IMG/VR virus record: IMGVR_UViG_3300031963_000162
Location: 1-59,295 of that record
Length of the DNA stretch: 59,295 bases
Source: a virus
Lineage: Duplodnaviria > Caudoviricetes
Direction: 5' to 3' (one strand)
In this document: positions 1,986-47,096 of the stretch, in pieces
Layout of the letters: each line of letters starts with the position of its first letter
Numbering within the stretch: the stretch's first letter is position 1
Notes under the pieces: model-generated
What the model was told of the DNA's origin: nothing
Databases searched by the model: none
Seen by the model: the letters and a program-made list of their open reading frames with translations, nothing else
Position numbers and translations under genes: made by a program

Positions 1986-3394
1986 GTAAGATCACCAACG
2001 TCCGTCTGCCTAACGCGGCGACGCAGCAGTACAGTCCAGAGCAGTTTAACCAGCTGGTTCGTTCACTAGAACAGGTCATTCTGCAGTTAAATAACACGTA
2101 CTCGCCTATCGTCACGGAGGACAAAGATGCTGCCCTTACATGGTATGAATCTGGCGGCGGACTTATGGATGACACTGGTATGACTATTCCTGTATCGATT
2201 GGTGGCACGAATACCGACGCTTTTGGGCGACTGCGAGTAAGTGAACCCTACACGTTGTTTGACAGTCAGAATCGCTACGCTGCTGACAATCAATTCGACA
2301 CGAGCCTAAGTGGCACAGGATCAAGTACCTATAACGCTAATCAAGCCAGTATGAGTCTGGCGGTGACAGGCGGCGGCGTTGGTTCTGTAGTACGTCAAAC
2401 ATATCGTGTTTTCCCCTACCAGCCCGGTAAAGGGTTGTTGGTGTTAGCTACGTTTGTCATGGACAACGGAACATCTGCCAACCTTAATCAAAGTGTTGGG
2501 TATTTTAATACTCAAAACGGAGTGTTCTTTCGTCGAACGGGTGGTGTGAATGCATTTGTAATGCGCTCCAATACTTCTGGAACACCCAGCGATGCGCGGT
2601 TTGCCAATCAAGCGGATTGGAACGGTGACAAACTGGATGGTACGGGCGCGTCTGGGTATACGCTAGACCTTGAACACCCACAGATTTTGTGGATGGACTT
2701 TGAGTGGCTTGGTGTTGGCTCAGTTCGATGTGGCTTTATTATTGATGGGCAGTATGTTGTTTGCCATACGTTTGATACTGCTAACGTGTATGGCACTACG
2801 GTTTATATGACCACGGCTATCTTGCCTGTGCGCTATGAAATTACTACAACAACGGCTGCGGTAGCTGCAACCCTCACACAAATCTGCTGCTCGGTGGTGT
2901 CAGAAGGCGGCTTTGAGCAAACGTCGATTGACCATGTGGCGCGACGCACCACGATTTTAAATACGATAGGAACAACCTTTTTGCCTTTGGTTTCCATTCG
3001 TTTGGCTCCGGGCCGAACCGGTGCGGTGGTGTTGCCAAACCGAATTCAAGCTCTTCCGACAACCAGCCAAAACTACGAAGTGGTTTTGGTTAAAAACCCT
3101 ACGCTAACTGGAGCGACATGGGCCTCTACAGTGCCTTCGGACTCCAACGTGGAATTTGATGTAGCGGCAACGGCTATGACAGGCGGCACGATTGTGCAGT
3201 CAAATTATCTTGCGTCTAACACTGCCGGGGGTACGGGGGGTACTAGTTTTGATAACGCCTACAACTTTGATTTGCAGTTAGGCGCGACTATTGCCGGGGT
3301 GAGCGACGTTTACACGGTGGGCATTCGAACGGTCTCAGGAGCCACAACCGGTGATGCCTTGGGCTCGTTATCCTTTTATGATTTGACTCAATAA
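1982..3394 (+). CDS. Virion structural protein; short helical N-terminal domain fused to a DAFGRLRVS-type beta domain
   Basis: 470 aa, ATGA overlap with upstream gene; N-terminal RLPNA..Y..EQFNQLVRSLEQ helix, then DAFGRLRVSEP..LFDS, YQPGKG, DFEWLGVG.VR.G motifs seen in aquatic phage structural proteins. Confidence 0.55.
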   Translation: MSKITNVRLPNAATQQYSPEQFNQLVRSLEQVILQLNNTYSPIVTEDKDAALTWYESGGGLMDDTGMTIPVSIGGTNTDAFGRLRVSEPYTLFDSQNRYAADNQFDTSLSGTGSSTYNANQASMSLAVTGGGVGSVVRQTYRVFPYQPGKGLLVLATFVMDNGTSANLNQSVGYFNTQNGVFFRRTGGVNAFVMRSNTSGTPSDARFANQADWNGDKLDGTGASGYTLDLEHPQILWMDFEWLGVGSVRCGFIIDGQYVVCHTFDTANVYGTTVYMTTAILPVRYEITTTTAAVAATLTQICCSVVSEGGFEQTSIDHVARRTTILNTIGTTFLPLVSIRLAPGRTGAVVLPNRIQALPTTSQNYEVVLVKNPTLTGATWASTVPSDSNVEFDVAATAMTGGTIVQSNYLASNTAGGTGGTSFDNAYNFDLQLGATIAGVSDVYTVGIRTVSGATTGDALGSLSFYDLTQ

Positions 3395-3720
3395 TGGCTA
3401 ATAAGTACTTACGCAAATACCTGATCCCGGCTGCTGCCACGGAGACAACGATCTACACCGTGCCGGACGCGAACACGGGGATCATGCGTTCGTTGCGAGT
3501 GACTAATGCAGGTGCGTCGAGCGCGCTAATCACAGTGACGCAGTATGTATCGGGTACTCCGCACTTTTTGCAAAAGGTGAGGGCACTACCGGTCAACGAC
3601 ACCTTTGATGTCTTCAACGGGATTCCTTGCATTATGGAAGCCGGGGACATTCTCAAAGTGACATCGTCTATTGCGACTGTGCACTTCTATTTAAGTTATC
3701 TTGAAGTGGACAGAAACTGA
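3394..3720 (+). CDS. Small virion structural protein
   Basis: 108 aa beta-rich (TIYTVP..., EAGDILKV), TAATG overlap, tail gene cluster. Confidence 0.55.
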   Translation: MANKYLRKYLIPAAATETTIYTVPDANTGIMRSLRVTNAGASSALITVTQYVSGTPHFLQKVRALPVNDTFDVFNGIPCIMEAGDILKVTSSIATVHFYLSYLEVDRN

Positions 3721-3736
3721 TGAATTACCACATAAT
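3707..3736 (+). promoter_or_regulatory. Putative sigma70 promoter for ejection-protein operon
   Basis: TGGACA (3707-3712), 18 bp spacer, CATAAT (3731-3736), just upstream of the structured leader. Confidence 0.4.
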
Positions 3737-3740
3737 TACC

Positions 3741-3804
3741 GGCAATTCCGCGTCCTTTCCCGGCGCGCGACCCCGCACGAGGGTCTATTGCCACTTTGGA
3801 AAGG
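3741..3804 (+). ncRNA. Putative cis-regulatory structured 5' leader (three-way junction + pseudoknot onto SD)
   Basis: P1 GGCAAT 3741-46/ATTGCC 3787-92; P2 CGCGTC 3749-54/GGCGCG 3762-67; P3 GACCC 3769-73/GGGTC 3781-85; CCTTTCC 3754-60 is the exact complement of GGAAAGG 3798-3804 (SD of the gene at 3811). Confidence 0.5.
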
Positions 3805-3810
3805 ATTATC

Positions 3811-6060
3811 ATGGCTGAAGCGATGCAGGGCGTCATGTCTCTAGCCCCCGAAATGGGTGGTATGGGCGGCGCTCCCAAGAGTTATTTGACCCCTGAAGAC
3901 GAAGCGACGTTAACGCAGCTTCAAAACTCAGTCTCTCCTCAAGATTTCAACAAAGAGATGTTCAACGCTGCGGAGCAAGCTGACCCGCAAGCGGTGGCAC
4001 AGTTGCGTTCTATGCTGCAAGGCTTACGCTTGCCGCAGGAACTCATCGATTTGATGAAGGAGATGGTGGATGCGCTTCTGCAGGAACCTGCCAAGTACGC
4101 AGAAAACCGTGCGGAATTAGTTAAAGAAGGAGTGCCAGAGGACCTCTTGCCGCCAGAGTTTGATCCAACCTATTTGATGGCTTTGGACATGGCCTTGGAT
4201 CAGGTCTCACAACCTGTGGTTCAAGGCTTTGCCGCTGGTGGATTGGTCAGAAATCCGATTTCTGCAGGTATCGCCAGCCTTGGCCGTGGCGGCGACAGAA
4301 TATTGGCGCACATCACCCCGCGTGAGGCACGTATGCTCATGCGCGCGGGCGGCGCAGGAACGATTAACCCTATCACGGGTCTGCCTGAGTTCTTTCTCAA
4401 GAAGTTAGCAAAGGCCGTGGGCGGGGTCTTTGTAGGCGCAGGCAAAGCTATTAAAGGGGCCTTCCGAGGCATTGGTAAGGCTATTAAAAAGTTTGCCAGT
4501 AGTACGATAGGACGCATTGTCACGTCAGTGGCGCTGGGCTTCCTCTTAGGCCCAGCGGCGGCAAGTCTGTTAGGGGTGACATCAAGCGTGGGCGTAGCAG
4601 CCATTGGCGGCTTTATCGGTTCTGCTGGGTCAACCTTGTTGGCAGGCGGCAGCGTCGGTGACGCACTGAAGGCCGGTGCCATGGGTGGTATTACCGCAGG
4701 CGCATTCTCTGGCGTAACCGGTGGCATGGGGGCCTTTAAAGCAGGTTCTTACGCAGGTCCTACGACGGTGTCGGGTTCGTGGCAGCAGTTTACTGAGAGC
4801 CTTGGTGGTAAATCTGCAGTAGATGCAACTAAAGGTATTGGTGCGGTGGACGACGCCGCTGCCGCAGGTAAAGCGGCGGGTGTTGTGGATGAAGCAGCGG
4901 CGGCAAGTAAGGCAGCGGGTGCTGTAGATGAAGCAGCGGCTGCAGGTAAGGCCGCGACTGCGGATGAAATAGCTACTTCGTCAAGTTATACAGGACCTGC
5001 GAGAAGCCCCTCAACCATTCCTTCTGGACAGGGCACTAACCCCTACGATCTTTACGATTACGATCCAATAGCTACTGAAATACAAAAAGGTTATCTAGCG
5101 GGTGGTAAACCTGTAGGCACTGTTCCAAGCGTTGCCTCGCCTGTGACAAACCTCTCAAGCTACACAGGTCCCACAACACCGCAGCCTGCTCAACTCTTAG
5201 GCACAGGGCCCGCAGTTCCTGCGCCTACCGTTGCGCCTACTGGGGGTCCCAACTACCTGACAGATTCCTTGGATAATTTCGCAGGTGGAACAAATGCTCC
5301 TATCCCTGCTCCTCCGAAAAACTACTTACTAGAGTCCCCTTCGACGATGGGTGGTCCCAACATGACCCCTGTCGCTGCACCTGCTGGCGGTGCGGCCCCT
5401 TCACAAGGGGTCATGGATTTAGTCAAGGAAGGTAAATTCATAGAGGCAGGCAAGACGGCTGGATCAAAGGTTGGTGACCTGTATGACGAATACCTCTCGC
5501 CAAGCGGAATACAACAACGCGGCTCAGCCGAAGCTTTAAATAAAACAAAAGAAGCTTTTCCCGGCTTGTCTACAGAACAGATCATCAATGCCCCAGCAGG
5601 TTCGGTTATTGCCAAGACTTACGAAGCAAATTTACCGGGCATGCTGGCAACTTACGGCCCACTCGTCGGAACAATTGGCGGCGCGGCCTATCTGGGCGGC
5701 GCATTTGACGTAGAAGAGCCACCAAAACCAGACATCCCTGTCTCCGGGGCAGAGCTCTATCGTCGAGACCCTTACCTCATTACGCCGGATGTCCGCACCG
5801 TATCGGCCTCTACTGGCACCCCTTATCGTTATGCAACGGGCGGTGTCGCTAGTCTGGCGCGGGGAACTTCGAGTTACCCACGCAAGACAGGTCCGATTAA
5901 CGGCCCCGGCACAGGTACTTCGGATTCGATTCCTGCAATGCTCTCAGACGGCGAATTTGTGTTCACCGCAGCAGCAGTTCGTGCCATGGGCGGTGGCTCA
6001 CGGCGCAAGGGCGCAAAGCGTATGTACGCCTTAATGAAGGCCTTGGAGAAGAGGGCATAA
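3811..6060 (+). CDS. Internal virion / DNA ejection protein
   Basis: Start moved to ATG 3811 (SD AAGGA). G/A-rich hydrophobic segments, D.ILAHITP.EA..L...GG.GTINP.TGLPEF and GPGTGTSDSIPAMLSDGEFV motifs; first of several large genes after the nozzle gene. Confidence 0.6.
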   Translation: MAEAMQGVMSLAPEMGGMGGAPKSYLTPEDEATLTQLQNSVSPQDFNKEMFNAAEQADPQAVAQLRSMLQGLRLPQELIDLMKEMVDALLQEPAKYAENRAELVKEGVPEDLLPPEFDPTYLMALDMALDQVSQPVVQGFAAGGLVRNPISAGIASLGRGGDRILAHITPREARMLMRAGGAGTINPITGLPEFFLKKLAKAVGGVFVGAGKAIKGAFRGIGKAIKKFASSTIGRIVTSVALGFLLGPAAASLLGVTSSVGVAAIGGFIGSAGSTLLAGGSVGDALKAGAMGGITAGAFSGVTGGMGAFKAGSYAGPTTVSGSWQQFTESLGGKSAVDATKGIGAVDDAAAAGKAAGVVDEAAAASKAAGAVDEAAAAGKAATADEIATSSSYTGPARSPSTIPSGQGTNPYDLYDYDPIATEIQKGYLAGGKPVGTVPSVASPVTNLSSYTGPTTPQPAQLLGTGPAVPAPTVAPTGGPNYLTDSLDNFAGGTNAPIPAPPKNYLLESPSTMGGPNMTPVAAPAGGAAPSQGVMDLVKEGKFIEAGKTAGSKVGDLYDEYLSPSGIQQRGSAEALNKTKEAFPGLSTEQIINAPAGSVIAKTYEANLPGMLATYGPLVGTIGGAAYLGGAFDVEEPPKPDIPVSGAELYRRDPYLITPDVRTVSASTGTPYRYATGGVASLARGTSSYPRKTGPINGPGTGTSDSIPAMLSDGEFVFTAAAVRAMGGGSRRKGAKRMYALMKALEKRA
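4840..4956 (+). repeat. Three 39-bp in-frame tandem repeats (G[AV]VD[DE]AAAA[GS]KAA)
   Basis: Copies at 4840, 4879 and 4918 within the ejection-protein gene. Confidence 0.8.
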
Positions 6061-6063
6061 GCC

Positions 6064-7299
6064 ATGGCAACTGAATATCAAGTACAAACCATTCAGGAAG
6101 CGCCTGAGATTGAGAAGGCGCGACTTGCCCTACTTAAGACAGCAGAGCGAGAAGTATCTAAACCACTCGCCCTCCCCGGCTATGAGATTGCGGGGCTTGG
6201 CGAAGGACAACTTCAAGCTAAATCGCTGGCTCAACAAGGCGTGGGGTCCTATCAGCCTTTCTTAACAGAAGCCGAAAAGGGCATGGCTGCAGGACAGCAG
6301 CTGACACAACAAGCAGCGCAGGGCATCGCAGGATTGAATGTTTCACAGCCTCTGCAGGCAGCATACGGCGCACTTCAAGCAGGCGCAGGTGCAGCAGGTA
6401 ACTTGGGGACATTAGCGGCTACAGCAGGGCAAGGTCTGCCTACGGCAGCGTATGGGGCATCTATGCTGCCCGGTGCGGCAAGTGGCTACGATCCTTCGCA
6501 AGCTGCTGCGTACATGAACCCTTACCAACAGCAAGTCACTGCCAACGCGCTGCAAGAGATGCAGCGTCAGGCCGACATTGCAAGACAGGGACAGGCGGCG
6601 CAAGCGGTGCGCACTGGCGCGTTTGGTGGCACACGTGAAGGTGTGCAACGTGCAGAGACGGAACGTGGCTTGATGGATGTCATGGGCCAGCGTATCCTGC
6701 AGGATTACTCACAGAACTATCTCCAAGCACAACAGGCCGCGCAACAGGGCTTTGAGTCGCAACAACAGCGCCAGCTGGCAGCAGGACAGGCATTAGGTCA
6801 AATGAGTCTTTTGCCTTCGCAGATTGCGGGTCAGCAGGCAAACATCTTGGGTAACCAAGCCAATATCTACGGCCAACTCGGTCAGGGCATCGGCAGTCTA
6901 GGTCTGCAACAGGGTCAGTTTGGCCTGCAACAGGGCAGCACACTGGGTGGTTTGGGTGCACAACTTGCTACGCAGGCGGGTCAGCGCGCCAACTTGGGCG
7001 CGATGCAGCAGCAGTTGGGTCAGGCAGACGTTGCAATGATGGGTCAGATTGGCGCACAAGAACAAGCACTGCAACAGGCTCGCTTGGATGCAATGCGCGC
7101 AACGCAGATGCAGCAGACCTTCATGCCGTTCCAGCTGCTCTCCTTCCAGTCGGACATCTTGTCGAAGACACCGGGTAGCCAGACAGCCATTACTTCAACT
7201 ACTGCACCATCGCCTAGTCCTTTGACGCAGGCAGTTTCTACGGGTATTGCCGGACTGAGCACCTATGCAGGCGGCAAGGCAGCAGGCTTGTTTAAGTAG
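6064..7299 (+). CDS. Gln/Ala-rich DNA ejection (pilot) protein
   Basis: 411 aa; YMNPYQQQV and GAFGGTR motifs, long Q/A/G helical region and C-terminal hydrophobic glycine zipper typical of podovirus ejection proteins. Confidence 0.6.
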   Translation: MATEYQVQTIQEAPEIEKARLALLKTAEREVSKPLALPGYEIAGLGEGQLQAKSLAQQGVGSYQPFLTEAEKGMAAGQQLTQQAAQGIAGLNVSQPLQAAYGALQAGAGAAGNLGTLAATAGQGLPTAAYGASMLPGAASGYDPSQAAAYMNPYQQQVTANALQEMQRQADIARQGQAAQAVRTGAFGGTREGVQRAETERGLMDVMGQRILQDYSQNYLQAQQAAQQGFESQQQRQLAAGQALGQMSLLPSQIAGQQANILGNQANIYGQLGQGIGSLGLQQGQFGLQQGSTLGGLGAQLATQAGQRANLGAMQQQLGQADVAMMGQIGAQEQALQQARLDAMRATQMQQTFMPFQLLSFQSDILSKTPGSQTAITSTTAPSPSPLTQAVSTGIAGLSTYAGGKAAGLFK

Positions 7300-12726: not shown

Positions 12727-13530
12727 ATGGCAACCAAACCAGTAAAAGCAAAGGCCAAGGTGTCAGTTAAAGCCCCTGCTAGAAAAATTCGCAAATTTAG
12801 AGAAGGTGGGTCTGTAATGGATTCCCCTTCTTACGATATGCGCGATCCTGCCTATCGAAAGCAACTAGAAAAGAAACAAGCCTTAGAAACATCAACTGAG
12901 GACCTTGAGCTTCTATTAGGGGTGGGAGCGGCAAAAAAGGGTGCGGGACTTTTACTTAAAGACCTCAAGAACTTTACACAACGAGCACCTAGTCGTTCTA
13001 TCACAAGGAACATAGAGATAGGCTCTAAAACACCTGAGGTTATATACAAAAGGGAATACGACAGACTGCGCCGAATGGCTGACGATGCCTTGGCACAGGG
13101 ACGTAAGGTGCCTGAAAAAGAACTCAAAGAGAAGGCAGAATATTGGACGCAGTATGAATTGAAAAAGATTAAAGACAATAAGCTGCCTTCAAGGAAAGAC
13201 TTAGTAAAACAAGAGGTAAAGGATAAAGCTTTAAAAACTGCGGAACGTGCGTTCTATGCTACTTCGTTGGAAACGGCTCCTAAAGCATTAAGATCGTTTC
13301 AAGATAAAGAAGAGAAGCCCGCTGGCATGAAAAAAGGAGGAGCGGTGAAAAAAACCACGAAGTCCAAGGTCAACCAGTCCGCCAACTACACGAAGCCGAC
13401 GATGCGCAAGCGCTTGTTTGAGCAGATCAAAGGCTCTGCCACGCAGGGGACCGCTGCAGGTCAATGGTCGGCCCGCAAGGCCCAGCTGCTGGCGAAGAAA
13501 TACAAAGCCAGCGGCGGGGGCTACAAGTGA
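12727..13530 (+). CDS. Lys-rich protein with C-terminal GQWSARKAQLL domain (DUF5872-like N-half)
   Basis: 267 aa; NYTKPTMRKRLFEQIK...GQWSARKAQLLAKKYK..GGGY; carries FREGGSV and MKKGGAV motifs. Confidence 0.55.
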   Translation: MATKPVKAKAKVSVKAPARKIRKFREGGSVMDSPSYDMRDPAYRKQLEKKQALETSTEDLELLLGVGAAKKGAGLLLKDLKNFTQRAPSRSITRNIEIGSKTPEVIYKREYDRLRRMADDALAQGRKVPEKELKEKAEYWTQYELKKIKDNKLPSRKDLVKQEVKDKALKTAERAFYATSLETAPKALRSFQDKEEKPAGMKKGGAVKKTTKSKVNQSANYTKPTMRKRLFEQIKGSATQGTAAGQWSARKAQLLAKKYKASGGGYK

Positions 13531-31886: not shown

Positions 31887-32972
31887 ATGTCAACACTTAT
31901 GCAAGCTTCGCGTCAATGGTCTACACGTCCCGCCGAAGAGCGGTTTATTTCGCTCACGGAAATGCATGCTCAGCAAGCGGCCCAGCGCGCTATTTCGCGC
32001 GCCGCCGTGGTGAGCTCGCGTCAGCTCCGCGCAGTGCCCACGGATGACAATTCCGGCATTTTGATTGAGGGCCCGAACGGGCACGGGTTTGCCCCTTCGC
32101 ATTGGGCGTTCGGCCAAGCGGCGGGCCTGATCGGCGCGCCCGCTGGGTATCTGCGTACACTCCCGGCCCCAGTGGCGGCGGACTGTATCAATTGGGGCAT
32201 GCAACACGAACGGGACGCGCAGGATGTGGGCGTACTGTTAACGCGCAACGGCGAATCAGTAATTCGCGCTATGACCGGCCCGCGCTACGGGCGTGTGTGG
32301 AATGATGATGTTATTGCGGCGCTGATTGACCGCTTTGGTGACGGCGTGACGGGCGATTTCCGCGTCCCGGGCGTATGGGGCCGGGCCGTTGAAGTGGACC
32401 GCGAAAACACCACGCTGTACGCGGGAGACCGCGACATGTTCGTTTTTCTCGCCGATGAGAAAAACCGCATCGAGCTACCGGGCCGCCGGGACGGCGAGAC
32501 CGGGACGCTGGCCCGGGGGTTTTTTGTCACTAATTCCGAAGTGGGCGGCGGGGCCTTGCGCGTGAAAACCTTTTTGTTCGATTTTGTTTGCGCGAATCGT
32601 ATTGTATGGGGCGCTCATGAGCTCGAAGAAATATCGCTTCGGCATACGGCCAGCGCGCCGGACCGCTTCATTGAAGAAGTAGCGCCCGCGTTGCTCGCTT
32701 ATTCGCAGGCCAGCGAATCGAACACGCTGAACGTGTTGCAAGCGGCCCAGCGCGAGCGGATCCCGGACGTGAGCAAGTTTCTCGCGAATCGTTTCGGGCC
32801 GCGTGTTGCCCAGCGCGTTGAACATGCGCACGTGATTGATGAGGGGCGCCCCATTGAAACGATCTGGGACGCTGTAACGGGCGCTACGGCGTACGCCCGC
32901 TCGATTCAATGGACCGCTGATCGCGTCGAATTCGAGACGCAAGCGGGCGAGCTACTGGACCTCGTAGCGTGA
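31887..32972 (+). CDS. DUF932/DUF945-like phage/plasmid protein
   Basis: 361 aa; RY.R.WN..V, GFFVTNSEVG.G.L.V......VCAN..V, RHT, T.WD.V...T..A motifs. Confidence 0.7.
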   Translation: MSTLMQASRQWSTRPAEERFISLTEMHAQQAAQRAISRAAVVSSRQLRAVPTDDNSGILIEGPNGHGFAPSHWAFGQAAGLIGAPAGYLRTLPAPVAADCINWGMQHERDAQDVGVLLTRNGESVIRAMTGPRYGRVWNDDVIAALIDRFGDGVTGDFRVPGVWGRAVEVDRENTTLYAGDRDMFVFLADEKNRIELPGRRDGETGTLARGFFVTNSEVGGGALRVKTFLFDFVCANRIVWGAHELEEISLRHTASAPDRFIEEVAPALLAYSQASESNTLNVLQAAQRERIPDVSKFLANRFGPRVAQRVEHAHVIDEGRPIETIWDAVTGATAYARSIQWTADRVEFETQAGELLDLVA

Positions 32973-32993
32973 TTCGTTTTCCCTGAGCTCGGC

Positions 32994-33435
32994 CCAGCTG
33001 GGCCGCGCGGACCGCCCTTCGGGGCGGTTTTTTTTCGCCCCTATAAACCGGGCCCGGCCAGCGCCGTACATTATCCCGCCGCTATGAAAAGCTTCGGCCA
33101 GCTGGCCCCGGACGCCCGGCGCGCCCCTGAGCGGATCCGGGCCCCGTGGGCCTTGGTCCCTGATCCCTGAACGTACGGCCCCAGCGCGCGCCCCGTGGGC
33201 CCAGCTGGCCGCTTCGTGGGCCGTGGGCCGTGCCCAGCTGGCCGGGATTGATTCGCCCAGCTGCAGCGCCCAGCTGGCCGCGTGTTTGTGTTTGTGTTTG
33301 TGATCCGGTTTGTGATGAGGGATCACAAACACCCAGCTGGCCGTGGGCCGTGGGCCGTGATGCGTGATGCATGCCCAGCTGGCCGCGCATGCCGGGCCGT
33401 GGGCCGCGCGCCCCGGACCGTGGGCCGTGGACCGG
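32994..33435. repeat. GC-rich non-coding repeat block (CCAGCTGG palindromes, CCGTGGG heptamers, TGTTTG run)
   Basis: CCAGCTGG at 32994, 33098, 33201, 33234, 33270, 33333, 33375 (variant at 33257); tandem CCGTGGG at about 33216-32, 33341-60, 33418-31; (TGTTTG)3 at 33283-300. Confidence 0.8.
33011..33035 (+). terminator. Rho-independent terminator closing the early island
   Basis: ACCGCCC-TTCG-GGGCGGT followed by a long T run. Confidence 0.85.
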
Positions 33436-33933: not shown

Positions 33934-33957
33934 AAATTTTTGCAAAATTCAAAACCT

Positions 33958-35424
33958 ATGGACTTAGCAAATCAACAAGATGTCGAATCGGAACGTATCA
34001 AGCTAGAACTTCGACTCTTGCAGCTTGAAGCGCAGGAACGTGCAACGTCCTCCTTCTTGGATTTCTGTCGCTACGTGTGGCCCGAGATGATTGTCGGTGA
34101 GCACCATCGCCGTATCGCTGCGGCCTTGGACCGTGTGGTCGCGGGCAAATGCAAGCGTCTGATGATCGCGATGCCTCCTCGGCACGGTAAGTCGCAGATG
34201 GGCAGTTATCTGTTCCCTGCGTACCTGATGGGCAAGAAGCCTGATTCGAAACTCATTGTCGGTTCGCACACGGCGGAGTTAGCGCAGCGTTTTGGCCGGA
34301 TGATTCGAAACCTTGTGGCGGACGAGAAGTACCGGGAGTTGTTCCCTGAGTTCATGCTCTCGGCTGACAGCAAGGCGGCGGGCCGGTGGGACACGAACGC
34401 TGGTGGGGAGGCGTTCTTCATTGGTAAAGGCGGCGCGATGACGGGCCGTGGCGGTAACGTGGTTATCTTGGACGACATCTTGGACGAACAGGATGCTTTG
34501 TCGGACACCGCGATGGAGGGCACGTGGGAGTGGTATACGTCGGGTCCTCGTCAGCGTTTGCAGCCGGATGGCGCGATTATCATCATCAACACCCGTTGGC
34601 GGACCGATGATCTGTCGGGGAGGTTATTGAAGCAGCAGGGCCAGTTGAAGTCGGACCAGTGGGAGATATTGGAGTTCCCGGCGATTCTGCCGAACAATGC
34701 GCCGTTGTGGCCGGAGTACTGGAAGCTTGAGGAGTTAGAGAAGGTCAAGATGTCGATTGGCCTTCGCAAGTGGCAGGCGCAGTGGCAGCAGCAGCCGACG
34801 GCGGAAGAGGGTGCGATATTAAAGCGCGAGTGGTGGCAGCGTTGGGAGCACAACTCGCCGCCCAAGTGTGAGTACTTAATTCAGAGTTATGACACGGCGT
34901 ACAGCAAGAAAGAGACGGCGGACTTCTCTGTGATTACGACGTGGGGCGTGTTTGTGCCGAACGCGGACTCGGGGCCGAACATTATTTTGTTGGACGTGGT
35001 GAAGGGCCGGTGGGACTTCCCGGAGTTAAAGCGTATTGCCAAGGAGCAGTACAGCTATTGGAATCCTGACAACGTCTTGATCGAGGCCAAGGCCACGGGC
35101 GTGACATTGCAGCAGGAACTGCGGCGCGTGGGCATACCGGTGACGATGTACAACCCCGGTGGACGGCGCGCGGGTCAGGACAAGATAAGCAGGGCGCATG
35201 CGGTGGCTCCGTTGTTCGAGAGCCGGATGGTCTGGGCACCTGAGACGGAGTGGGCGGAGGAGCTGATTGAGGAGTGTGCGGCATTCCCGAATGGCGATAA
35301 CGACGACATGGTCGATTCGACAACACAGGCCATGATGCGCTTTAGGCAGGGCAACTTTGTGACCTTGGAGACGGACGATGTCGAGGAGGAGGGAAGCGAT
35401 GCGCTTGTGTATGAGTATTATTAG
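33958..35424 (+). CDS. terL: Terminase large subunit
   Basis: MPPRHGKS Walker A, VILDD Walker B, TRW..DDL.G, QQQP, SYDTA, IEAKATG, FP.G.NDDMVD nuclease motifs. Confidence 0.95.
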   Translation: MDLANQQDVESERIKLELRLLQLEAQERATSSFLDFCRYVWPEMIVGEHHRRIAAALDRVVAGKCKRLMIAMPPRHGKSQMGSYLFPAYLMGKKPDSKLIVGSHTAELAQRFGRMIRNLVADEKYRELFPEFMLSADSKAAGRWDTNAGGEAFFIGKGGAMTGRGGNVVILDDILDEQDALSDTAMEGTWEWYTSGPRQRLQPDGAIIIINTRWRTDDLSGRLLKQQGQLKSDQWEILEFPAILPNNAPLWPEYWKLEELEKVKMSIGLRKWQAQWQQQPTAEEGAILKREWWQRWEHNSPPKCEYLIQSYDTAYSKKETADFSVITTWGVFVPNADSGPNIILLDVVKGRWDFPELKRIAKEQYSYWNPDNVLIEAKATGVTLQQELRRVGIPVTMYNPGGRRAGQDKISRAHAVAPLFESRMVWAPETEWAEELIEECAAFPNGDNDDMVDSTTQAMMRFRQGNFVTLETDDVEEEGSDALVYEYY

Positions 35425-35433
35425 CTCTAGAAT
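35405..35433 (+). promoter_or_regulatory. Putative sigma70 promoter upstream of the 1223-aa gene
   Basis: TTGTGT 35405-10, 17 bp, TAGAAT 35428-33; small ACCTT-GCTA-AAGGT hairpin over the SD. Confidence 0.4.
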
Positions 35434-35464
35434 CCCTCAAGTTTAACCTTGCTAAAGGTACGCC

Positions 35465-38400
35465 ATGGACTTTAACGCCTTAAATAGCTTTATCGATGAG
35501 GACAATGCCTCCGAGGGCTATGATGATCTTGTGGGATTTTCCGAAGGCGGTCCCGTGGGCGAGGACATGGAGGACGATGAGCAGCCGAGCCTTCAGTATT
35601 TTGCTCAGGGTGGTGAGGTAGAGGAAGCGCAGGCAATTTTGACGCGCATGCCTAAGCCGGGTAGAGCAGCGCAGATGCTGCAGAGTTTTGCTGAGGGCGG
35701 TGAAGTACAGAAGACGCCGTTCCCTGAGCTGTTGGACATTAGCAAGCAGGTGAATGCGGCGGGTGCGCCGGTCGAGAAGCTTGCGACACCGACCACGGCT
35801 CCTGCGTCAGCGTCCGTTCCATCGCAGATCAACATCCCGACATTCCAGCCTGTTGCTGCGCCGCCCACGGGCCCGAGCATAATGACGCCGACGCCTGCTC
35901 CGCTTACGGGGTTGGGTGCGCAGCCTACTTTGTCTCAGCCGTCGACGGCCCCGACATCGACGGCGCGGTCGTTGTTTGAGCAGATCAATCCAGCGGCATT
36001 GGCAGCGACACCGACGTACACAACGCCGACGTTTACACCGACTGTACAGACGTTTACCAAGCCGACACTGTTGACGAAAGAGGAGTTGCAGAAGGCGCAG
36101 CCTCCTCTTGTGCGGTACGAGCCGAGTGCAACGTATGGTGGACTGGAGACGTACAAGGGGCCCTTGCAGACGAGTCCTTACGTAGATATACCCGGCGCTC
36201 CGGGGTCCGATGGCGCTCCTGCCCCAGCACCTGCAGCACCTGCGAACATGACGCCGGGGGGTTACAAGTACACGACGTATACCTCGTTGACCCCGGATCA
36301 GTTGGTGGGCTTGGGCAATAAGGCGCAGTTAGGGCAAACCTTTACAGGGATCGTGAAGCGTCAGCAGGATGATGCAACGGCTATTCGCACTGAGTTTAAC
36401 AATGCGATAGCCAGTGGCGACATTGAAACAGCGACAGCGTTGAGGCCGCTTCTTGTACAGAAGGAGGCGGATTTACGCCAAGCCATTACGGACCAAGGGC
36501 TCGTAAATAAATATTTCACAGGCGTAGGTGGAGCGTTTGAGACACCGGAGCAGTATCGTCAACGAGTGCAGACGGCTCGGTTAACGGGAAGTAGATTGGG
36601 GCCTGAGCTTACTTCCGTGTCATTAGAGGGGCTGCAATACAAGCTTCCAGAAACGTCTGCCAAGGGTGCCGTTCCCACACCTTTTGCAGCCCAAATCAAT
36701 ACGCAAAAAGCTGAGTATGACGCGGCGGTGGCCGTGTATGAGAACTTGGCGAGTGCGTATGGCAGGGAGAATCCGTTCGTCAAAAACTATCTTGCAGAGG
36801 TAGTGACGCCGCAGAAGGCGGACTACGACATGCTGATAGCCAAGCCGGTAAGCACTGCAGCGACTGCAGCAGACCGGCTATTGTCCAGTCCGACTTTGGC
36901 GAAAGCGTATACCCCACCGAAGTTATCGCCGACGTTCAAGGTGTCGAATACGATGGCGGCGTTCAAAGGGATCGTAGGCGGTTTGGAGACCTCGGTGAGG
37001 CAGTTGACCAATACAAGAGATGCTGCGGCAGCGGCGGGGTTGACTGGCTATGTTTCGCAGTTGGACGAGGCACTTGAAGCGGAACAGGGCAAGTTGAGCA
37101 AGGCCTTGGAAGATCGTCAAGCGGCAGTGGACAATTCTTTGCCTGACCCTGTAAAACGAGCGATGGGCTCTCCGCCCGAGGGCGAGATGTTGGAGAGTCA
37201 GTCGAGGGCCTTACTAAAAAAGTTATCGGGGGGCAGTGAGGCCAACACTGTCCCCCTGCAGAAGTTCAACAAGGGTGGGGCGGTAAACAAGGCTCAAGGA
37301 TCACCGATCTACGGCGAGATTCCGGACAGCGGGCCTATCACAGCGGACACCAGAGCGGCGTTCAAGGCCAAGGGCCCGAGTGCGTCGAGTGTTGTATCGG
37401 ACGCGGCGAGGTTGTTGAGGAACATCACGGGCGAGGGCTTGTCGAATCTTGAATCGAGAATACGGGGCTCTGTAGCCACGATCCCCGGAACCTTTGGCGA
37501 TATCGAGTCGATCTTTAGAGAGAGCGACAAGACGCGCAAACTGGCGACGACGGAAGAGGTCTTGCGGGATTACATGCCGGGTCGTTTGACCAAGCCCACG
37601 AAGGAAGCCAAGGGCTTTGAAGAGTTGGGTACGTATCTTCCTTTGGCGATTCCTGCGGGAACCGTGAGTAAAGCAGCGACGATGACGGGCAAGGGTGTTG
37701 AAAAAGGTGCTGCGAAGATGTTAGAGCGCCTTGGTCCACGGACCGGGCGTAGTTGGGAGCCGTTGCTTGCACAGGCGGGTGCCGCTCCGATGTACGCGGT
37801 CAAGACCAAGGGTGGAGCGTTTTATCCTGAGGGTATGGGATCGGGCGTAGATACGTATTTAGACCGCGTCGTTAAAGGGTTGACTGGGGCGGAGAATCTG
37901 GCAGGCCGGGACGCTAAGGCGGTGGCGGACTTTATTCGTACCAAGGGACGTAAGTATCTGACTTCGGTGTATGGCACGGCAGAGGATCCATTACGTCTGG
38001 CAGTGATTGAAGGTCGGATGCCGTTGTACGGCTCGGATCAAGAGCGGTTCAGGGATTACCTGTTGGACGCAGCGCGCGCGGGCAATCCGAATGCGATTAA
38101 GGACCTTGAGCGCTTTTACGATGAAGCAACACATCTAAGCACACAGGGCTATGTCCCAGCAGGGGCGACGGACCCTTCCTATGTAATAGGTAACCGTATG
38201 CAGACAGCGCAACGTGAGCGACTGCTTGCTGAAGGGGTGCCAGAGGATTTAATTAATCCAGTTTATCCTGCAACGAATACTGCGCAGCAAATGGCAGAGA
38301 CTACCTATTCAGAGCCCCGCAAGAAGTTAGGCGAACTGTTGCAGGGGATGGAAGCGTTGCCCCCGGACATGCGAGAGTCGTATGTACGCGGAGTGGGCGA

Positions 38401-39136
38401 TACGGATAAGGGAATACAGTCCCTTTTGTATTCGGCGACCAAAGAGCAGCCGATCTACGACCTTGCAACTACCCCAAGCATGGACTTCCTGAAGCCTAAC
38501 AATCTGGCCGAGGGCATTGCATCGATACCCCTTAGAGACCTTGAGCGCATGACGTTCCCTGAAGCGGTGGTCAAGGGGGCGCAGAACATGCGTCTAAAGC
38601 GTGATCGCGGGTTAATGTTGGAGAAGGCGCGAGACGGTAAGGCGGTTCCTAAAGAGATTTATTTTGACGGAACCCAGCCTGTCTACGAGATTGACAAGAA
38701 TCAGAAGTGGGTGCGTATTATGTCGCCTGATGCAGTGGAGCTAGAAGGGGCAGCGATGCGGCATTCGATTGGTGGCTATAAGACCAAAGACGATTACAAC
38801 CTAGGTGGCAAAAAAGCCTTTAACTCGGGACTCGCGCGCATCTTCTCTTTGCGTAATGAGAAGGGCGTACCACAGGTGACGGTTGAGACGAAGTTCACGG
38901 ACGAAGACGGCTTGATGATTAAAGAAGTCAGATCGAAGTTCAACAGTGAGCCTACAGCAGCGGAGAAGCGCGCAGTGTTTCAGTTATTTGAGACACTAGG
39001 TCCAAGAGAAATCAGATCCACCAAGTACAGAAACAGTCGCACAGGAGAGACTTTGAAAGAAGAGGATCGCGTAGAGGTCAACTGGGGCGACGAGTTCAAA
39101 AACTACATGCAGTACAAAAACAAGGGTGAGGAATAA
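35465..39136 (+). CDS. Large modular protein with C-terminal PcfJ-like domain; possible -1 frameshift
   Basis: 1223 aa between terL and portal; three N-terminal FxxGG.V motifs, Pro/Thr linker, coiled coils; C-terminal ELEG.AMRHSIGGY...RIFSLR...G.PQVTVE resembles PcfJ-like domain. Confidence 0.55.
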   Translation: MDFNALNSFIDEDNASEGYDDLVGFSEGGPVGEDMEDDEQPSLQYFAQGGEVEEAQAILTRMPKPGRAAQMLQSFAEGGEVQKTPFPELLDISKQVNAAGAPVEKLATPTTAPASASVPSQINIPTFQPVAAPPTGPSIMTPTPAPLTGLGAQPTLSQPSTAPTSTARSLFEQINPAALAATPTYTTPTFTPTVQTFTKPTLLTKEELQKAQPPLVRYEPSATYGGLETYKGPLQTSPYVDIPGAPGSDGAPAPAPAAPANMTPGGYKYTTYTSLTPDQLVGLGNKAQLGQTFTGIVKRQQDDATAIRTEFNNAIASGDIETATALRPLLVQKEADLRQAITDQGLVNKYFTGVGGAFETPEQYRQRVQTARLTGSRLGPELTSVSLEGLQYKLPETSAKGAVPTPFAAQINTQKAEYDAAVAVYENLASAYGRENPFVKNYLAEVVTPQKADYDMLIAKPVSTAATAADRLLSSPTLAKAYTPPKLSPTFKVSNTMAAFKGIVGGLETSVRQLTNTRDAAAAAGLTGYVSQLDEALEAEQGKLSKALEDRQAAVDNSLPDPVKRAMGSPPEGEMLESQSRALLKKLSGGSEANTVPLQKFNKGGAVNKAQGSPIYGEIPDSGPITADTRAAFKAKGPSASSVVSDAARLLRNITGEGLSNLESRIRGSVATIPGTFGDIESIFRESDKTRKLATTEEVLRDYMPGRLTKPTKEAKGFEELGTYLPLAIPAGTVSKAATMTGKGVEKGAAKMLERLGPRTGRSWEPLLAQAGAAPMYAVKTKGGAFYPEGMGSGVDTYLDRVVKGLTGAENLAGRDAKAVADFIRTKGRKYLTSVYGTAEDPLRLAVIEGRMPLYGSDQERFRDYLLDAARAGNPNAIKDLERFYDEATHLSTQGYVPAGATDPSYVIGNRMQTAQRERLLAEGVPEDLINPVYPATNTAQQMAETTYSEPRKKLGELLQGMEALPPDMRESYVRGVGDTDKGIQSLLYSATKEQPIYDLATTPSMDFLKPNNLAEGIASIPLRDLERMTFPEAVVKGAQNMRLKRDRGLMLEKARDGKAVPKEIYFDGTQPVYEIDKNQKWVRIMSPDAVELEGAAMRHSIGGYKTKDDYNLGGKKAFNSGLARIFSLRNEKGVPQVTVETKFTDEDGLMIKEVRSKFNSEPTAAEKRAVFQLFETLGPREIRSTKYRNSRTGETLKEEDRVEVNWGDEFKNYMQYKNKGEE
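37216..37256 (+). promoter_or_regulatory. Putative programmed -1 ribosomal frameshift signal
   Basis: In-frame A AAA AAG (37216-22), 5-nt spacer, 11-bp stem GGGGGGCAGTG/CACTGTCCCCC with 7-nt loop; -1 frame stops at TGA 37237-39. Confidence 0.6.
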
Positions 39137-39138
39137 CC

Positions 39139-41505
39139 ATGCCAGTAGATAAGCTCGGGGAAAACGAAAAGCCCTTGTCCGTGGAGATTGAAGCGGCAGG
39201 CATGCCTGAAATCGAAATCGTCTTGGAAGAGGATGGTGGGGCGACAGTTGAGATGGGCGAGGACGAAGCTGCGGAAGTGGACTTCTATGACAACTTAGCC
39301 GAGGTGATTAGCGCGGACGATCTGTCGGAAATGTCGCAGACATTGTTGGCGTTGTACGAGGCGGACAAGTCATCGCGGTCGGACTGGGAGACGATGTACT
39401 CCAAGGGCCTTGATCTGTTGGGCTTGAAGCTTGAAGAGCGGACCAAGCCTTTCCGTGGTGCGGCGGGGGCAGTGCATCCGATGTTAACTGAGGCGATTGT
39501 GCAGTTCCAAGCACAGGCGATGAAGGAGTTGATGCCGTCCAGTGGTCCGGTTAGGACGCAGATTGTGGGTAAGGAGACCTTGGACAAGGCGCAGCAGGCC
39601 TCGCGTGTGCAAGATTTCATGAATTACCAGCTAACGACGGTGATGGAGGAGTACACACCGGAGTTTGATCAGGCGCTTTTCTACCTTGGTTATGGTGGAT
39701 CGGTGTTCAAGAAGGTGTATTACGACCGTTATTTGGGTCGGATGGTGTCCAAATTGGTCTTGGCGGACGATTTGTACATCCCGTATTACGGCTCAAGTGT
39801 CATGAGCCAATGCTCACGGGTCACGCATCGTGTGGCGATGTCCACGAACGAGTTTAAGAAGCGTGTTTTGGCGGGTGAGTACCTTGATTTGGACTTGCAA
39901 GCAGAGGCTTTTGACCCGACAGCGAGCGATATTTCGCAGGCGATAGACAAACAGACGGGTTTAACGCCATCTGACGAAGCCGAAGAGATGTTTTTGCTTG
40001 AGATGCACGTTGATTATGACGTGCCGGGCTTTGAAGATGTCGATGAGGATGGTGAGCCGACGGGAATTAAGCTGCCGTTCTTGATTACGATTGAAGAAGT
40101 CAGCGGTCGCGTGGTCGGTGTGCGTCGAAATTGGGAAGAGGACGACGATTTAAAGCTTCGCATCCCTGCGTTTGTGCATTACGTGCTGGTTGAGGGTCTG
40201 GGCGCGTATGGTTTGGGCTTTGTGCATCTGATTGGTGGCTTGTCGAAGACGGCTACGATGGCGATGCGGCAGTTGTTGGATGCGGGAACGCTCTCGAATC
40301 TGCCTGCGGGCTTCAAAGCGAAGGGTGCGCGTATCGCAGATAGCGATAATCCGATTCAGCCGGGCGAATGGCGTGACATTGATGCGGGTGGTGCGGAGTT
40401 GACGGCGTCGTTGTTGCCGTTGCCGTACAAAGAACCGAGCCAGACGCTGTTCTCGTTGCTTGGTTTTGTGGTGGATGCGGGCAAACGCTTGGCATCGATT
40501 GCTGACATGCAGGTGGGTGAAGGCAATCAGATGGCGGCGGTGGGTACGACCATTGCGTTGATGGAAAAAGGCTCGATGGTGATGTCGGCCATCCACAAGC
40601 GCCTGCATTATTCGCAGAAGATGGAGTTCCAACTGCTTGCCAAGGGCTTTGGTAAGTATCTGCCGGACGAATATCCGTATGAGGTGCCGGGTGCGTCGAG
40701 AAAAATCAAGAAGCATGACTTCAATCAGCTGGTGGCGGTACTTCCTGTGGCTGATCCGAACATCTTCTCGGTGGCCCAGCGCATCACTTTGGCGCAAACG
40801 CAGTTGCAATTGGCGCAGACAGCGCCGATGATGCACAACATGTACGAGGCGTACTACCGTGTGTATGCGGCGATGAACGTCAGAGACATTGATGGCATCT
40901 TGAGGCCGCAGAATACGCAGATGCCGAAGGACCCCGCGCAGGAAAACGCGGATGTATTGGATCAGATGGAGTTGAAGGCGTTCTCTGGTCAGCAGCATGA
41001 CGCGCATATCTTGTCGCATTTGATCATGGGCATGTCGCCGATGTTGCAGGCGAACCCGCAGGCGGCGATGACGCTGCAGAAGCACATTTTGGATCACGTG
41101 CGCAAGAAGGCGGAGGAGATTGTCGAGGCGCAGTTGTTCTCGGAGTATGGTGCGGACCCTGATCGTATGGTGTCGCCGATCCAGAAGGAGGGCATGATCG
41201 CGTTGGAAGTGGCTAAGGCCATGATGGAGCTGCGTGGCATTCAAGCGCAGCTGTCTGGTGAGGGTCCTGACCCTGTGGTGCAGCTGAAGCAGGCAGAAAT
41301 CCAGCAACGTGCACAGGCGGACAGCCAGCGTATCCAGATTGAGGGTGCGAAGTTAGAAGTAGAGAAGCAAAAGGCAGCGGAGGTGCAGCGCGCTAACATG
41401 GCACGTGTGCAGTCGCAGGAAAATATTGCGATGTTACGAGCGGATGTGGCGCGAGAGCGTCTTAACCAAGTCAGTCAACAGCAAGGAGCACAAAATGCCT
41501 CTTAA
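39139..41505 (+). CDS. Portal protein
   Basis: 788 aa after terL region; [58 protein letters not shown]; C-terminal coiled coil as in P22-like portals. Confidence 0.85.
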
Positions 41506-44567: not shown

Positions 44568-45476
44568 ATGGCTATTTCACGCGCACAACTAGTTAAAGAG
44601 TTGGAGCCCGGCCTGAACGCCCTGTTCGGCCTTGAGTACAAAAACTATGAGCAAGAGCATCTGCAGATTTACGACGTTGAGTCGTCAGATCGTGCATTTG
44701 AAGAGGAAGTCATGCTGTCTGGCTTCGGTGAGGCTCCGGTCAAAACCGAAGGTGCTGGCTTGGCATACGACACCGCTCAGGAAGTCTTTACCGCTCGCTA
44801 CACCCACGAGACGATTGCTCTGGCATTCTCTCTGACGGAAGAAGCGGTGGAAGATAACCTGTACGACCGTTTGGCTCGTCGTTACACCCTCGCTCTGGCC
44901 CGTTCGATGGCAACTACCAAGCAGATCAAGGCCGCTTCGGTCTTGAACGGCGCTTTCACCACCTCGATTGGTGGCGACGGCGTTGCTCTGTGCTCGACGG
45001 ATCACCCTATCATTGGTGGCCCAGACCAGAAAAACGAACTGGCAACCGCTGCTGACCTTTCCGAGACTTCTTTGGAACAGGCCATCATCGACATCCAGTC
45101 GTTGGTTGACGAGCGCAACCTGAAGATCGCAATCCAAGGCCTGAAGCTGATCATCCCGAAAGAGCTTCAGTTCACTGCGGATCGCATCATGAAGTCCACT
45201 CTGCGTGTTGGCACTGCCGACAACGACATCAACGCCCTGAAGAACATGGGCATGATTCCGCAGGGCTACACTGTCAACCACTACCTGACCGATCCGGACG
45301 CATGGTTCGTTAAGACCGACGCTCCGAACGGCATGAAGATGTTTGAACGTGTAAACATGAAGACCGCCTTTGAAGGTGATTTCGAAACTGGCAACATGCG
45401 CTACAAGGCGCGTGAGCGTTACAGCTTCGGCTTCTCCGATTGGCGCGGTATCTTCGGCTCGCCCGGCGCGGCCTAA
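44568..45476 (+). CDS. Major capsid protein (HK97 fold, Mu gpT-like)
   Basis: MAISRAQLVKELEPGLNALFG, SDRAFEEEV, ARYTHETIALAF..TEEA.EDNLY, YLTD.DAWF, YKARERYSFG.SDWR; biased codon use; followed by terminator. Confidence 0.9.
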   Translation: MAISRAQLVKELEPGLNALFGLEYKNYEQEHLQIYDVESSDRAFEEEVMLSGFGEAPVKTEGAGLAYDTAQEVFTARYTHETIALAFSLTEEAVEDNLYDRLARRYTLALARSMATTKQIKAASVLNGAFTTSIGGDGVALCSTDHPIIGGPDQKNELATAADLSETSLEQAIIDIQSLVDERNLKIAIQGLKLIIPKELQFTADRIMKSTLRVGTADNDINALKNMGMIPQGYTVNHYLTDPDAWFVKTDAPNGMKMFERVNMKTAFEGDFETGNMRYKARERYSFGFSDWRGIFGSPGAA

Positions 45477-45480
45477 GAGA

Positions 45481-45510
45481 AAAAGGGGAGCTTCGGCTCC
45501 CCTTTTTTTT
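45481..45510 (+). terminator. Rho-independent terminator after MCP
   Basis: AAAA-GGGGAGC-TTCG-GCTCCCC-TTTTTTTT. Confidence 0.9.
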
Positions 45511-45550
45511 AGTCGTAAAATGGCAAGAACTAGATGAAAAGGAGTTGTTT

Positions 45551-46802: not shown

Positions 46803-47096
46803 ATGGCGACGAAAAAGTCCAAAGGAATGGGCATTGCTACTTCGGTGAAGTCGGGGAATTTTCGATCCACCAAGTCTGGAGCGGGCATGACGAAGCAAGG
46901 TGTTGCTGCTTATCGTCGTGCTAATCCGGGCAGCAAGCTCCAAACCGCTGTGACTGAAAGTAATCCATCGGGGGCGCGCGCGAAGCGTCGTAAGTCGTTT
47001 TGCGCACGTTCTGAGGGGCAGATGAAGATGTACCCAGAGGCAGCAAAGGACCCAAACAGCCGTATCCGCCAAGCGCGGCGTCGGTGGAAATGTTGA
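46803..47096 (+). CDS. Small basic protein (DUF6321-like)
   Basis: GMT..GV.AYR..NPGSKL, RRKSFCARS.G, KDPNSR...ARRRWKC. Confidence 0.6.
   Translation: MATKKSKGMGIATSVKSGNFRSTKSGAGMTKQGVAAYRRANPGSKLQTAVTESNPSGARAKRRKSFCARSEGQMKMYPEAAKDPNSRIRQARRRWKC

Follow-up and report, generated by a model that had tools for sequence, protein, structure and literature searches.

Does the large gene between the terminase and portal genes of this phage DNA make one protein or, through a programmed ribosomal frameshift, two? The window, that is, the whole stretch analysed, is IMG/VR virus record IMGVR_UViG_3300031963_000162, an assembly of 59,295 bp in one contig that represents a complete-length phage-like genome with a G+C content of 52.7%. 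The gene, designated P0001 like its product, encodes a mosaic protein of 1223 amino acids (aa), and a preliminary description of the window had proposed that a signal of the type known from E. coli dnaX diverts some ribosomes into the -1 frame within it. The evidence presented here, which comes from sequence comparison and structure prediction, makes it probable, at roughly three chances in four, that nucleotides 37204-37256 are a dnaX-type programmed -1 frameshift cassette by which translation of a polyvalent virion-type protein is cut short after the helical N-terminal module (N-module).

The cassette extends over about 53 nucleotides (nt), and its elements are listed in Table 1. The anatomy given in the preliminary description agrees with the sequence and with the open reading frame (ORF) in every particular. 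Codons of the gene start at positions equal to 2 modulo 3, which places CTA at 37214-37216, AAA at 37217-37219 and AAG at 37220-37222 and gives an in-frame A_AAA_AAG. The sequence GAGGG is separated from this heptamer by 7 nt (37209-37215); the phage's own genes have GGAG/GAGG-type ribosome binding sites, so host ribosomes should recognise it. On the other side, 5 nt downstream of the heptamer and within the ~5-9 nt expected of a dnaX-type signal, begins an 11-bp stem in which GGGGGGCAGTG (37228-37238) pairs with CACTGTCCCCC (37246-37256) through 10 Watson-Crick pairs and one G-U pair; it is closed by the 7-nt loop AGGCCAA and folds at -22.2 kcal/mol. After a slip the -1 frame reads GTT ATC GGG GGG CAG TGA, so that five residues (V-I-G-G-Q) would be added to the first 586 to give the predicted product of 591 aa. 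The candidate site also lies where it had been placed, at a module boundary just N-terminal of the fourth of the protein's FxxGG tags (residues 25, 46, 75, and 601). A long -1 ORF of the extending type found in the lambda G/GT genes is absent: a -1 stop is reached after 5 codons in the window and after 4-5 in every relative.

The heptamer by itself is not unusual in the window. AAAAAAG occurs 16 times on the two strands as compared with 12.15 +/- 3.55 expected, and 14 of 100 shuffled sequences reach this count. Among the 31 long plus-strand ORFs listed, A_AAA_AAG is found in frame only twice, and the copy at 37216 is the only in-frame XXXYYYZ heptamer (where Y is A or T) of the P0001 gene. The second copy, at 12933-12939 in ORF 12727-13530 (GCA AAA AAG, peptide A-K-K), provided a negative control within the window; the sequence downstream of it is unstructured (-3.8 kcal/mol), its -1 frame stops after 6 codons, and it looks like an ordinary Lys-Lys pair. 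None of 200 dinucleotide shuffles folds as stably as the hairpin at 37228 (z = -3.55 on 52 nt and -3.86 on 40 nt), and 14 of the 19,752 sliding 40-nt windows in the contig reach -22.2 kcal/mol, three of them being the candidate frameshift site. The occurrence of heptamer and hairpin together at the right spacing makes chance already unlikely, and the question is settled by conservation in relatives.

Relatives of the site were sought with back-translated peptide patterns of degenerate sequence (AAR AAR, YTN), which leave codon choice open. A first pattern gave 7 loci and another a single locus, and the pattern for the ARAMLKKFAGG family had no match in viral contigs. An alignment of ten junction peptides gave 147 pattern matches in metagenome contigs and 51 in viral contigs, among which 3 and 9, respectively, were confirmed as relatives; its 58 pattern matches in genome contigs included no confirmed relative, and no prophage or host lead emerged from the searches of that collection. 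Contig L033 was added by a search with the C-terminal module (C-module). Altogether, 15 contigs besides the window contain 10 distinct variants of the site, with flanking protein identities as low as 17-40%. All 10 variants have CTA AAA AAG, all have GGG as the first Gly codon, and all have an early -1 stop, 4-5 codons past the slip, following the tails VIGGQ, VIGG, VIGGR, VLGG, VRGGR, VVGGR, or VARG. GAGGG is present in nine of the 10, at exactly 7 nt and always by way of an AGG codon. In the window phage, CTA accounts for 7.9% of Leu codons, AGG for 7.7% of Arg, GGG for 15% of Gly, and AAA for 38% of Lys, and two of the 43 Lys-Lys pairs in its listed ORFs are written as A_AAA_AAG.

When the cassette was used as a nucleotide query, it was found in 11 IMG/VR contigs, each already known from its peptide, and nowhere else in that collection. 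A single match in 596 Gb of prokaryote genomes, in a Saprospiraceae metagenome-assembled genome, has an unrelated AT-rich context and no comparable hairpin and was judged to be due to chance. At the protein level, the motif R-x-x-[LM]-K-K-[LF]-x-G-[GD] occurs once in each of 25 of the 52 proteins that comprise P0001 and its 51 relatives, and the 27 proteins that lack it also lack the preceding module. The site is absent from contigs L030, L034, L037, and L042, in which the C-module stands behind other N-terminal parts; the cassette therefore belongs to the helical N-module. The preliminary description had suggested a search for relatives with the downstream module in the -1 frame; none of the relatives has it there, so that the shift would truncate the product in each of them. 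Protein P0018, which starts at query residue 607 and was considered as a split or -1-frame case, is merely cut by the end of its contig (L028).

Conservation at the site extends to synonymous positions. When the window is compared with each relative, codons for identical residues are themselves identical in 37-51% of cases over the gene (66% for the close relative L008), so synonymous sites are largely randomised across it. The same measure within the 21 codons of the signal is 15/16, 15/16, 16/17, 14/16, and 8/9; the local protein alignment misplaced the signal in L010 and L021 (2/6 and 2/7) and left it uncovered in L008 (0/0), and these three were read from the DNA. The nearby and equally conserved peptide GSPPEGE is subject to free synonymous variation (TCA/TCT, CCG/CCT/CCC, GAA/GAG, and GGT/GGC/GGA), and such variation resumes at once on both sides of the signal, including the positions right past the 3' arm of the stem. 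In contigs of other strains from public freshwater runs, similarity to the window is limited to 37165-37266 or 37192-37255, and the flanks are unlike. In extent and location the conserved island coincides with the proposed signal.

A strong hairpin is predicted 5-6 nt past the heptamer in nine of the 10 variants. Together with the invariant heptamer, this upholds the preliminary description on the computational part of the test that it had named, conservation of heptamer and stem in homologues. Six of the seven variants that were folded have shuffle z values of -3.86, -2.68, -3.22, -2.21, -3.18, and -2.78. Within the close group, changes in the stem keep the pairing (G-U to A-U, C-G to U-G, and a T/C swap opposite two Gs), and pairing is maintained despite the replacement of Gly-Ser by Asp-Ser and of Val by Ala. 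In the five variants that have the same register, 96.4% of the cells in paired columns can pair as compared with 53-73% when the partner is slid. The distant families have in common a G-run/C-run base of the stem with different complementary interiors, for example CAGTG/CACTG in the window and TGA/TCA in L010. Longer GC stems of 14-15 bp are found in L013 and L033, the latter with 15 bp at -29.4 kcal/mol.

Table 1. Features of the P0001 gene and of the candidate frameshift cassette (positions in the window)
Feature	Position	Strand	Remarks
Gene for large mosaic (polyvalent-type) protein P0001	35465..39136	+	Zero-frame long form, 1223 aa; ORFs of relatives run uninterrupted across the site
Predicted short form	35465..37239	+	Zero frame to K586 (37222), then -1 frame to TGA; putative product
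Internal Shine-Dalgarno-like GAGGG	37204..37208	+	Codons TCG AGG GCC; AGG is a rare Arg codon
Slippery heptamer A_AAA_AAG	37216..37222	+	Zero frame, X_XXY_YYZ register; CTA AAA AAG encodes L584 K585 K586
Spacer TTATC, 5 nt	37223..37227	+	TTCTT, TTCGC, TTGTC, or TTGCAA in relatives
Stimulatory hairpin (predicted)	37228..37256	+	11-bp stem, 7-nt loop
TGA stop of the -1 frame	37237..37239	+	Lies within the 5' arm of the stem
Fourth FxxGG tag, FNKGGAV	37265..37285	+	Residues 601-607; start of the exchangeable C-terminal module

The steps that would take place at this site, the slippage included, are inferred from the dnaX model. With the two Lys codons in the ribosomal P and A sites, the hairpin would block the mRNA entrance and slow translocation while, behind the ribosome, GAGGG would pair with 16S rRNA. 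Both tRNA-Lys molecules could then move back by one base and pair with AAA-AAA in place of AAA-AAG. In the case of dnaX, AAA and AAG are decoded by one host tRNA-Lys with a UUU anticodon, which makes AAG shift-prone. Ribosomes that slipped would terminate at TGA 37237 and release the 591-aa form, which would consist of the FxxGG tags at the N terminus, a region rich in Pro, Thr, and Ala, and the all-helical N-module. Those that did not slip would continue to the 1223-aa form, which adds the exchangeable C-module with its PcfJ-like end. The cassette would in this way set the ratio of the N-module alone to the N-module with cargo from a single gene.

Several points weigh against a frameshift. 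The distance between GAGGG and the heptamer, 7 nt, is shorter than the roughly 10 nt that separate AGGGAG from the heptamer in dnaX. In L033, GAGGG is replaced by AAGG through an Arg-to-Lys change, and the L021/L022 family has only a weak 5-bp stem (z = -0.15). The 10 variants are related by descent, so that the counts given above are not independent trials. Formal covariation analysis of five variants found only one double-sided change and a score that is not significant, being equalled or exceeded in 305 of 500 shuffles; because column-wise covariation is weak, the structural argument depends on the distant families, in which the stems do not permit a column-by-column alignment. The peptide R-A-L-L-K-K-L-S-G-G is itself conserved, and some constraint at the protein level may contribute. 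A search for a stand-alone N-module (proteins of 30-671 aa compared with residues 270-590) found none at E <= 0.001 among 8000 scored candidates, the ceiling on candidates and truncation at contig ends both being limitations, and the cassette itself is the sole evidence that a free N-module is useful. Finally, no RNA run was listed among the public sequencing runs that contain 36700-37800.

The best surviving alternative is that the island serves as a linker motif in the protein, as a junction at which homologous recombination swaps C-modules, or as both, with no frameshift and with heptamer and hairpin as by-products. Conserved boundary sequences in mosaic phage genomes are a classical idea, and the position of the site, 6-21 codons ahead of the point at which homology to many relatives starts (residues 592-607), is consistent with it. 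So are the recurrence of RALLKKLSGG and the neighbouring GSPxxGE and FxKGGxV motifs at module borders, the near identity of the island over ~50 nt within the close group, and the restriction to the island of matches with other strains. However, the longest run common to the families (the window compared with L010, L013, L033, and L021) is the 11-nt CTAAAAAAGTT, which is too short for homologous exchange, and what is kept in these families is the heptamer, the Shine-Dalgarno-like motif, the stem and the -1 stop, whereas spacer, loop and stem interior vary. A peptide constraint would not fix synonymous sites, yet the rare codons CTA, AGG, and GGG are fixed. In addition, residues 562-586, which are encoded by the signal, are predicted to be disordered, with a predicted local distance difference test score (pLDDT) below 50, and a protein-level reason for the strict conservation is less likely in such a linker. 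A linker or junction that involves no frameshift is consequently an unlikely explanation of the island.

An RNA element with a different role is somewhat less probable again. The site could impose a translational pause at the module border while the N-module folds or docks, or could be a site of mRNA processing or stability. Hairpins and internal Shine-Dalgarno-like sequences both pause ribosomes (PMC7282821, PMC5389563), and the element is located in a disordered linker between folded modules. A slippery heptamer is dispensable for a pause. All 10 variants nevertheless have CTA AAA AAG, when the commoner CTG AAG AAG would give the same peptide, and the early -1 stop is equally invariant. A minus-strand intrinsic terminator for antisense transcription, suggested by a reverse complement that reads as the G+C-rich 11-bp stem, GATAA, and CTTTTTT, is very improbable because the T-run begins 6 nt past the stem and not at 0-2 nt, a scan of 35400-39200 gives five terminator sites that do not include this one, the long ORFs near the site are all on the plus strand, and the conserved GAGGG, the frame register and the -1 stops would be left unexplained.

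The proposed frameshift resembles that of E. coli dnaX in having a candidate Shine-Dalgarno-like element, an A_AAA_AAG read by two tRNA-Lys, a 10-11-bp hairpin a few nt downstream, a -1 frame that stops almost at once, and a truncation that removes C-terminal domains (PMC5389563, PMC7282821). The dnaX stem has 10 bp (PMC7282821). Frameshift efficiency in dnaX is ~50-80%; in one in vitro system, loss of the Shine-Dalgarno element lowered it from 84% to 50%, loss of the hairpin to 20%, and loss of the slippery sequence to 2% (PMC5389563). The two differ in gene context, a phage mosaic protein gene beside terL and portal here and a DNA polymerase subunit there, and the -1 tail in the phage has 5 residues. 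The frameshifts of the lambda G/GT tail chaperone, T7 10A/10B, and the phage A2 capsid likewise lie in morphogenesis regions and fix the ratio of proteins that share an N terminus. In contrast, the G/GT-type and capsid shifts extend into a long -1 ORF, so that the shifted form is the longer one, whereas here it would be the shorter, and both the gene family and the position between terL and portal are different. Tail assembly chaperones dominate the annotated phage frameshifts and account for 2397 of the 2476 joined genes in the SEA-PHAGES collection (PMC10885494).

Polyvalent proteins (Iyer et al. 2017, PMC5512222) are similar to P0001 in being large multi-module proteins encoded beside packaging genes and in their module shuffling. 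The main text of that paper contains neither the word "frameshift" nor the word "PcfJ", and the separation of modules discussed there is by proteolytic processing and not by recoding. The P0001 family probably belongs to this class, as judged from position, mosaicism and the domains of relatives, with no module of P0001 itself above the Pfam threshold. No literature was found on this site or on a frameshift in PcfJ-like or polyvalent phage genes; the supplementary tables of PRFect may list related cases, and the text of the PRFect paper describes predicted frameshifts between MuF-like and VIP2 ADP-ribosyltransferase genes. The mechanism is a known one, and it is the gene context that is new.

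A search of 5.8 billion proteins with P0001 gave 51 relatives, almost all of them metagenomic. These are mosaic. In many of them the alignment begins only at query residue ~592-607 and runs to the end, the N-terminal parts ahead of it being quite different, and others match P0001 over residues 1-564 or 407-657. Some contain SLT lytic transglycosylase, ART-PolyVal, or DUF4214 domains that replace the PcfJ-like module or stand beside it. P0001 was assigned to no PHROGs family, and no Pfam domain was found above threshold in the whole protein; the only Pfam row, Stf0 sulphotransferase at E 0.02, was under the cut-off and was discarded. In the annotated phage collection there was no match to the whole protein by tblastn at E 1e-5 and none to the gene as a DNA query.

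The preliminary description referred to the long form as PcfJ-containing, a term that is too strong for P0001 itself and applies to its positional homologue. The C-terminal 223 aa of P0001 score 17.7 bits (E 0.0033) against PcfJ (PF14284), below the gathering threshold of 25 bits, and PF14284 has no match to the whole protein at E <= 0.1. The homologue, annotated as "PcfJ-like protein" in Phage DSL-LC04 (OR003939.1, WJZ48068.1), passes the threshold at 36.5 bits, and the two proteins have a common PcfJ core (query residues 1090-1142, E 3e-9). The DSL-LC04 protein also has the terL-portal position, N-terminal FxxGG tags and a GSPxYGE motif. It is shorter (825 aa) and has no match to the helical N-module; its linker, aligned to query residues 562-662, is without the Leu-Lys-Lys peptide, its DNA not having been searched for the cassette.

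AlphaFold (AF2) models were made of both modules. Residues 268-586, from a nine-row alignment, are predicted to be all-alpha (pLDDT 68), and a Foldseek search of this model against the PDB matched no solved fold (best E 0.41, generic helical rows). Residues 990-1223 (234 residues) give a confident model (pLDDT 83) for which Foldseek found no clear match, the best E being 0.034 with weak GNAT-like rows (template-modelling scores of 0.2-0.3). A BolA row at E 0.0034 from a sequence-profile search of the PDB was not used to assign a function, and the ESM Atlas gave no usable match. Three copies of a linker unit that consists of F-x-x-G-G-x-V and then [KR]-A-x-G-S-P-x-[YE]-G-E lie in 35537-35707 of the window, and a further copy lies at 37265-37324; in the relatives (P0002-P0052), the unit is located at almost every module junction and sometimes at the C terminus. 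This FxxGG/GSPxxGE unit could be a processing or docking motif of mosaic proteins.

The P0001 gene is preceded by terL (33940-35424; phrog_38, E 1.5e-111) and followed by the portal gene (39139-41505; phrog_1216, E 2.8e-38). No tRNA genes were found in the 59,295-bp contig. The nearest isolate to the window phage is Phage DSL-LC04, from lake water (identities of 74% for portal and 68% for terL), followed by Pelagibacter phages HTVC023P and HTVC027P and Roseobacter phages CRP-901/902. HTVC027P (L024, MN698241.1) has two adjacent genes, for 483 and 892 aa and one base apart, between terL and portal (1953-6084); these were considered as counterparts of P0001, and neither is similar to it. In HTVC023P the interval is only ~600 bp. 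Across this group of phages, the interval between terL and portal seems to accommodate variable cargo. At least half of the words of 36700-37800 are present in 15 public DNA runs with freshwater, lake-water, or "fungus" metagenome labels, and the runs with this stretch number 20, from 16 studies.

Two further features of the window were recorded. A 385-aa frame antisense to the portal gene (40150-41307, minus strand) is probably a by-product of codon composition. The other strongest 40-nt folds of the contig (-22.3 to -25.3 kcal/mol) are at approximately 32110-32150, 32482-32520, 32989-33030, 4519-4560, 13480-13520, 45472-45515, and 46972-47010. All of these are possible terminators or regulatory hairpins of another kind; the first three cluster at 32.1-33.0 kb, on the upstream side of the terminase gene and ~0.9-1.8 kb from it.

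The frameshifts annotated in phages are almost entirely those of tail assembly chaperone genes (PMC10885494), and they extend the product; the site described here would truncate the product of another class of gene. P0001 is a large mosaic and probably virion-packaged protein, and the signal in its gene has been kept throughout a clade of freshwater phages that are not in culture. At 53 nt the cassette is compact; natural variants of it exist, and it can be easily tested. If the frameshift is real, each such genome encodes a 591-aa protein that gene callers overlook, and the shift would provide a way to set how much carrier is made relative to cargo in polyvalent proteins, for which the main text of Iyer et al. 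discusses only proteolysis (PMC5512222). A more tentative extension, which we regard as possible and rather doubtful, is that the cassette is a portable dosage valve at the end of a carrier module. The same frameshift would then serve any cargo, whether PcfJ-like, lytic transglycosylase, ADP-ribosyltransferase, or others, at a fixed ratio of carrier alone to carrier plus cargo for packaging in the virion, and the island would also be the landing site for cargo exchange. If this were true, recoding would be a principle on which modular effector proteins of phages are organised in general, and not an isolated case.

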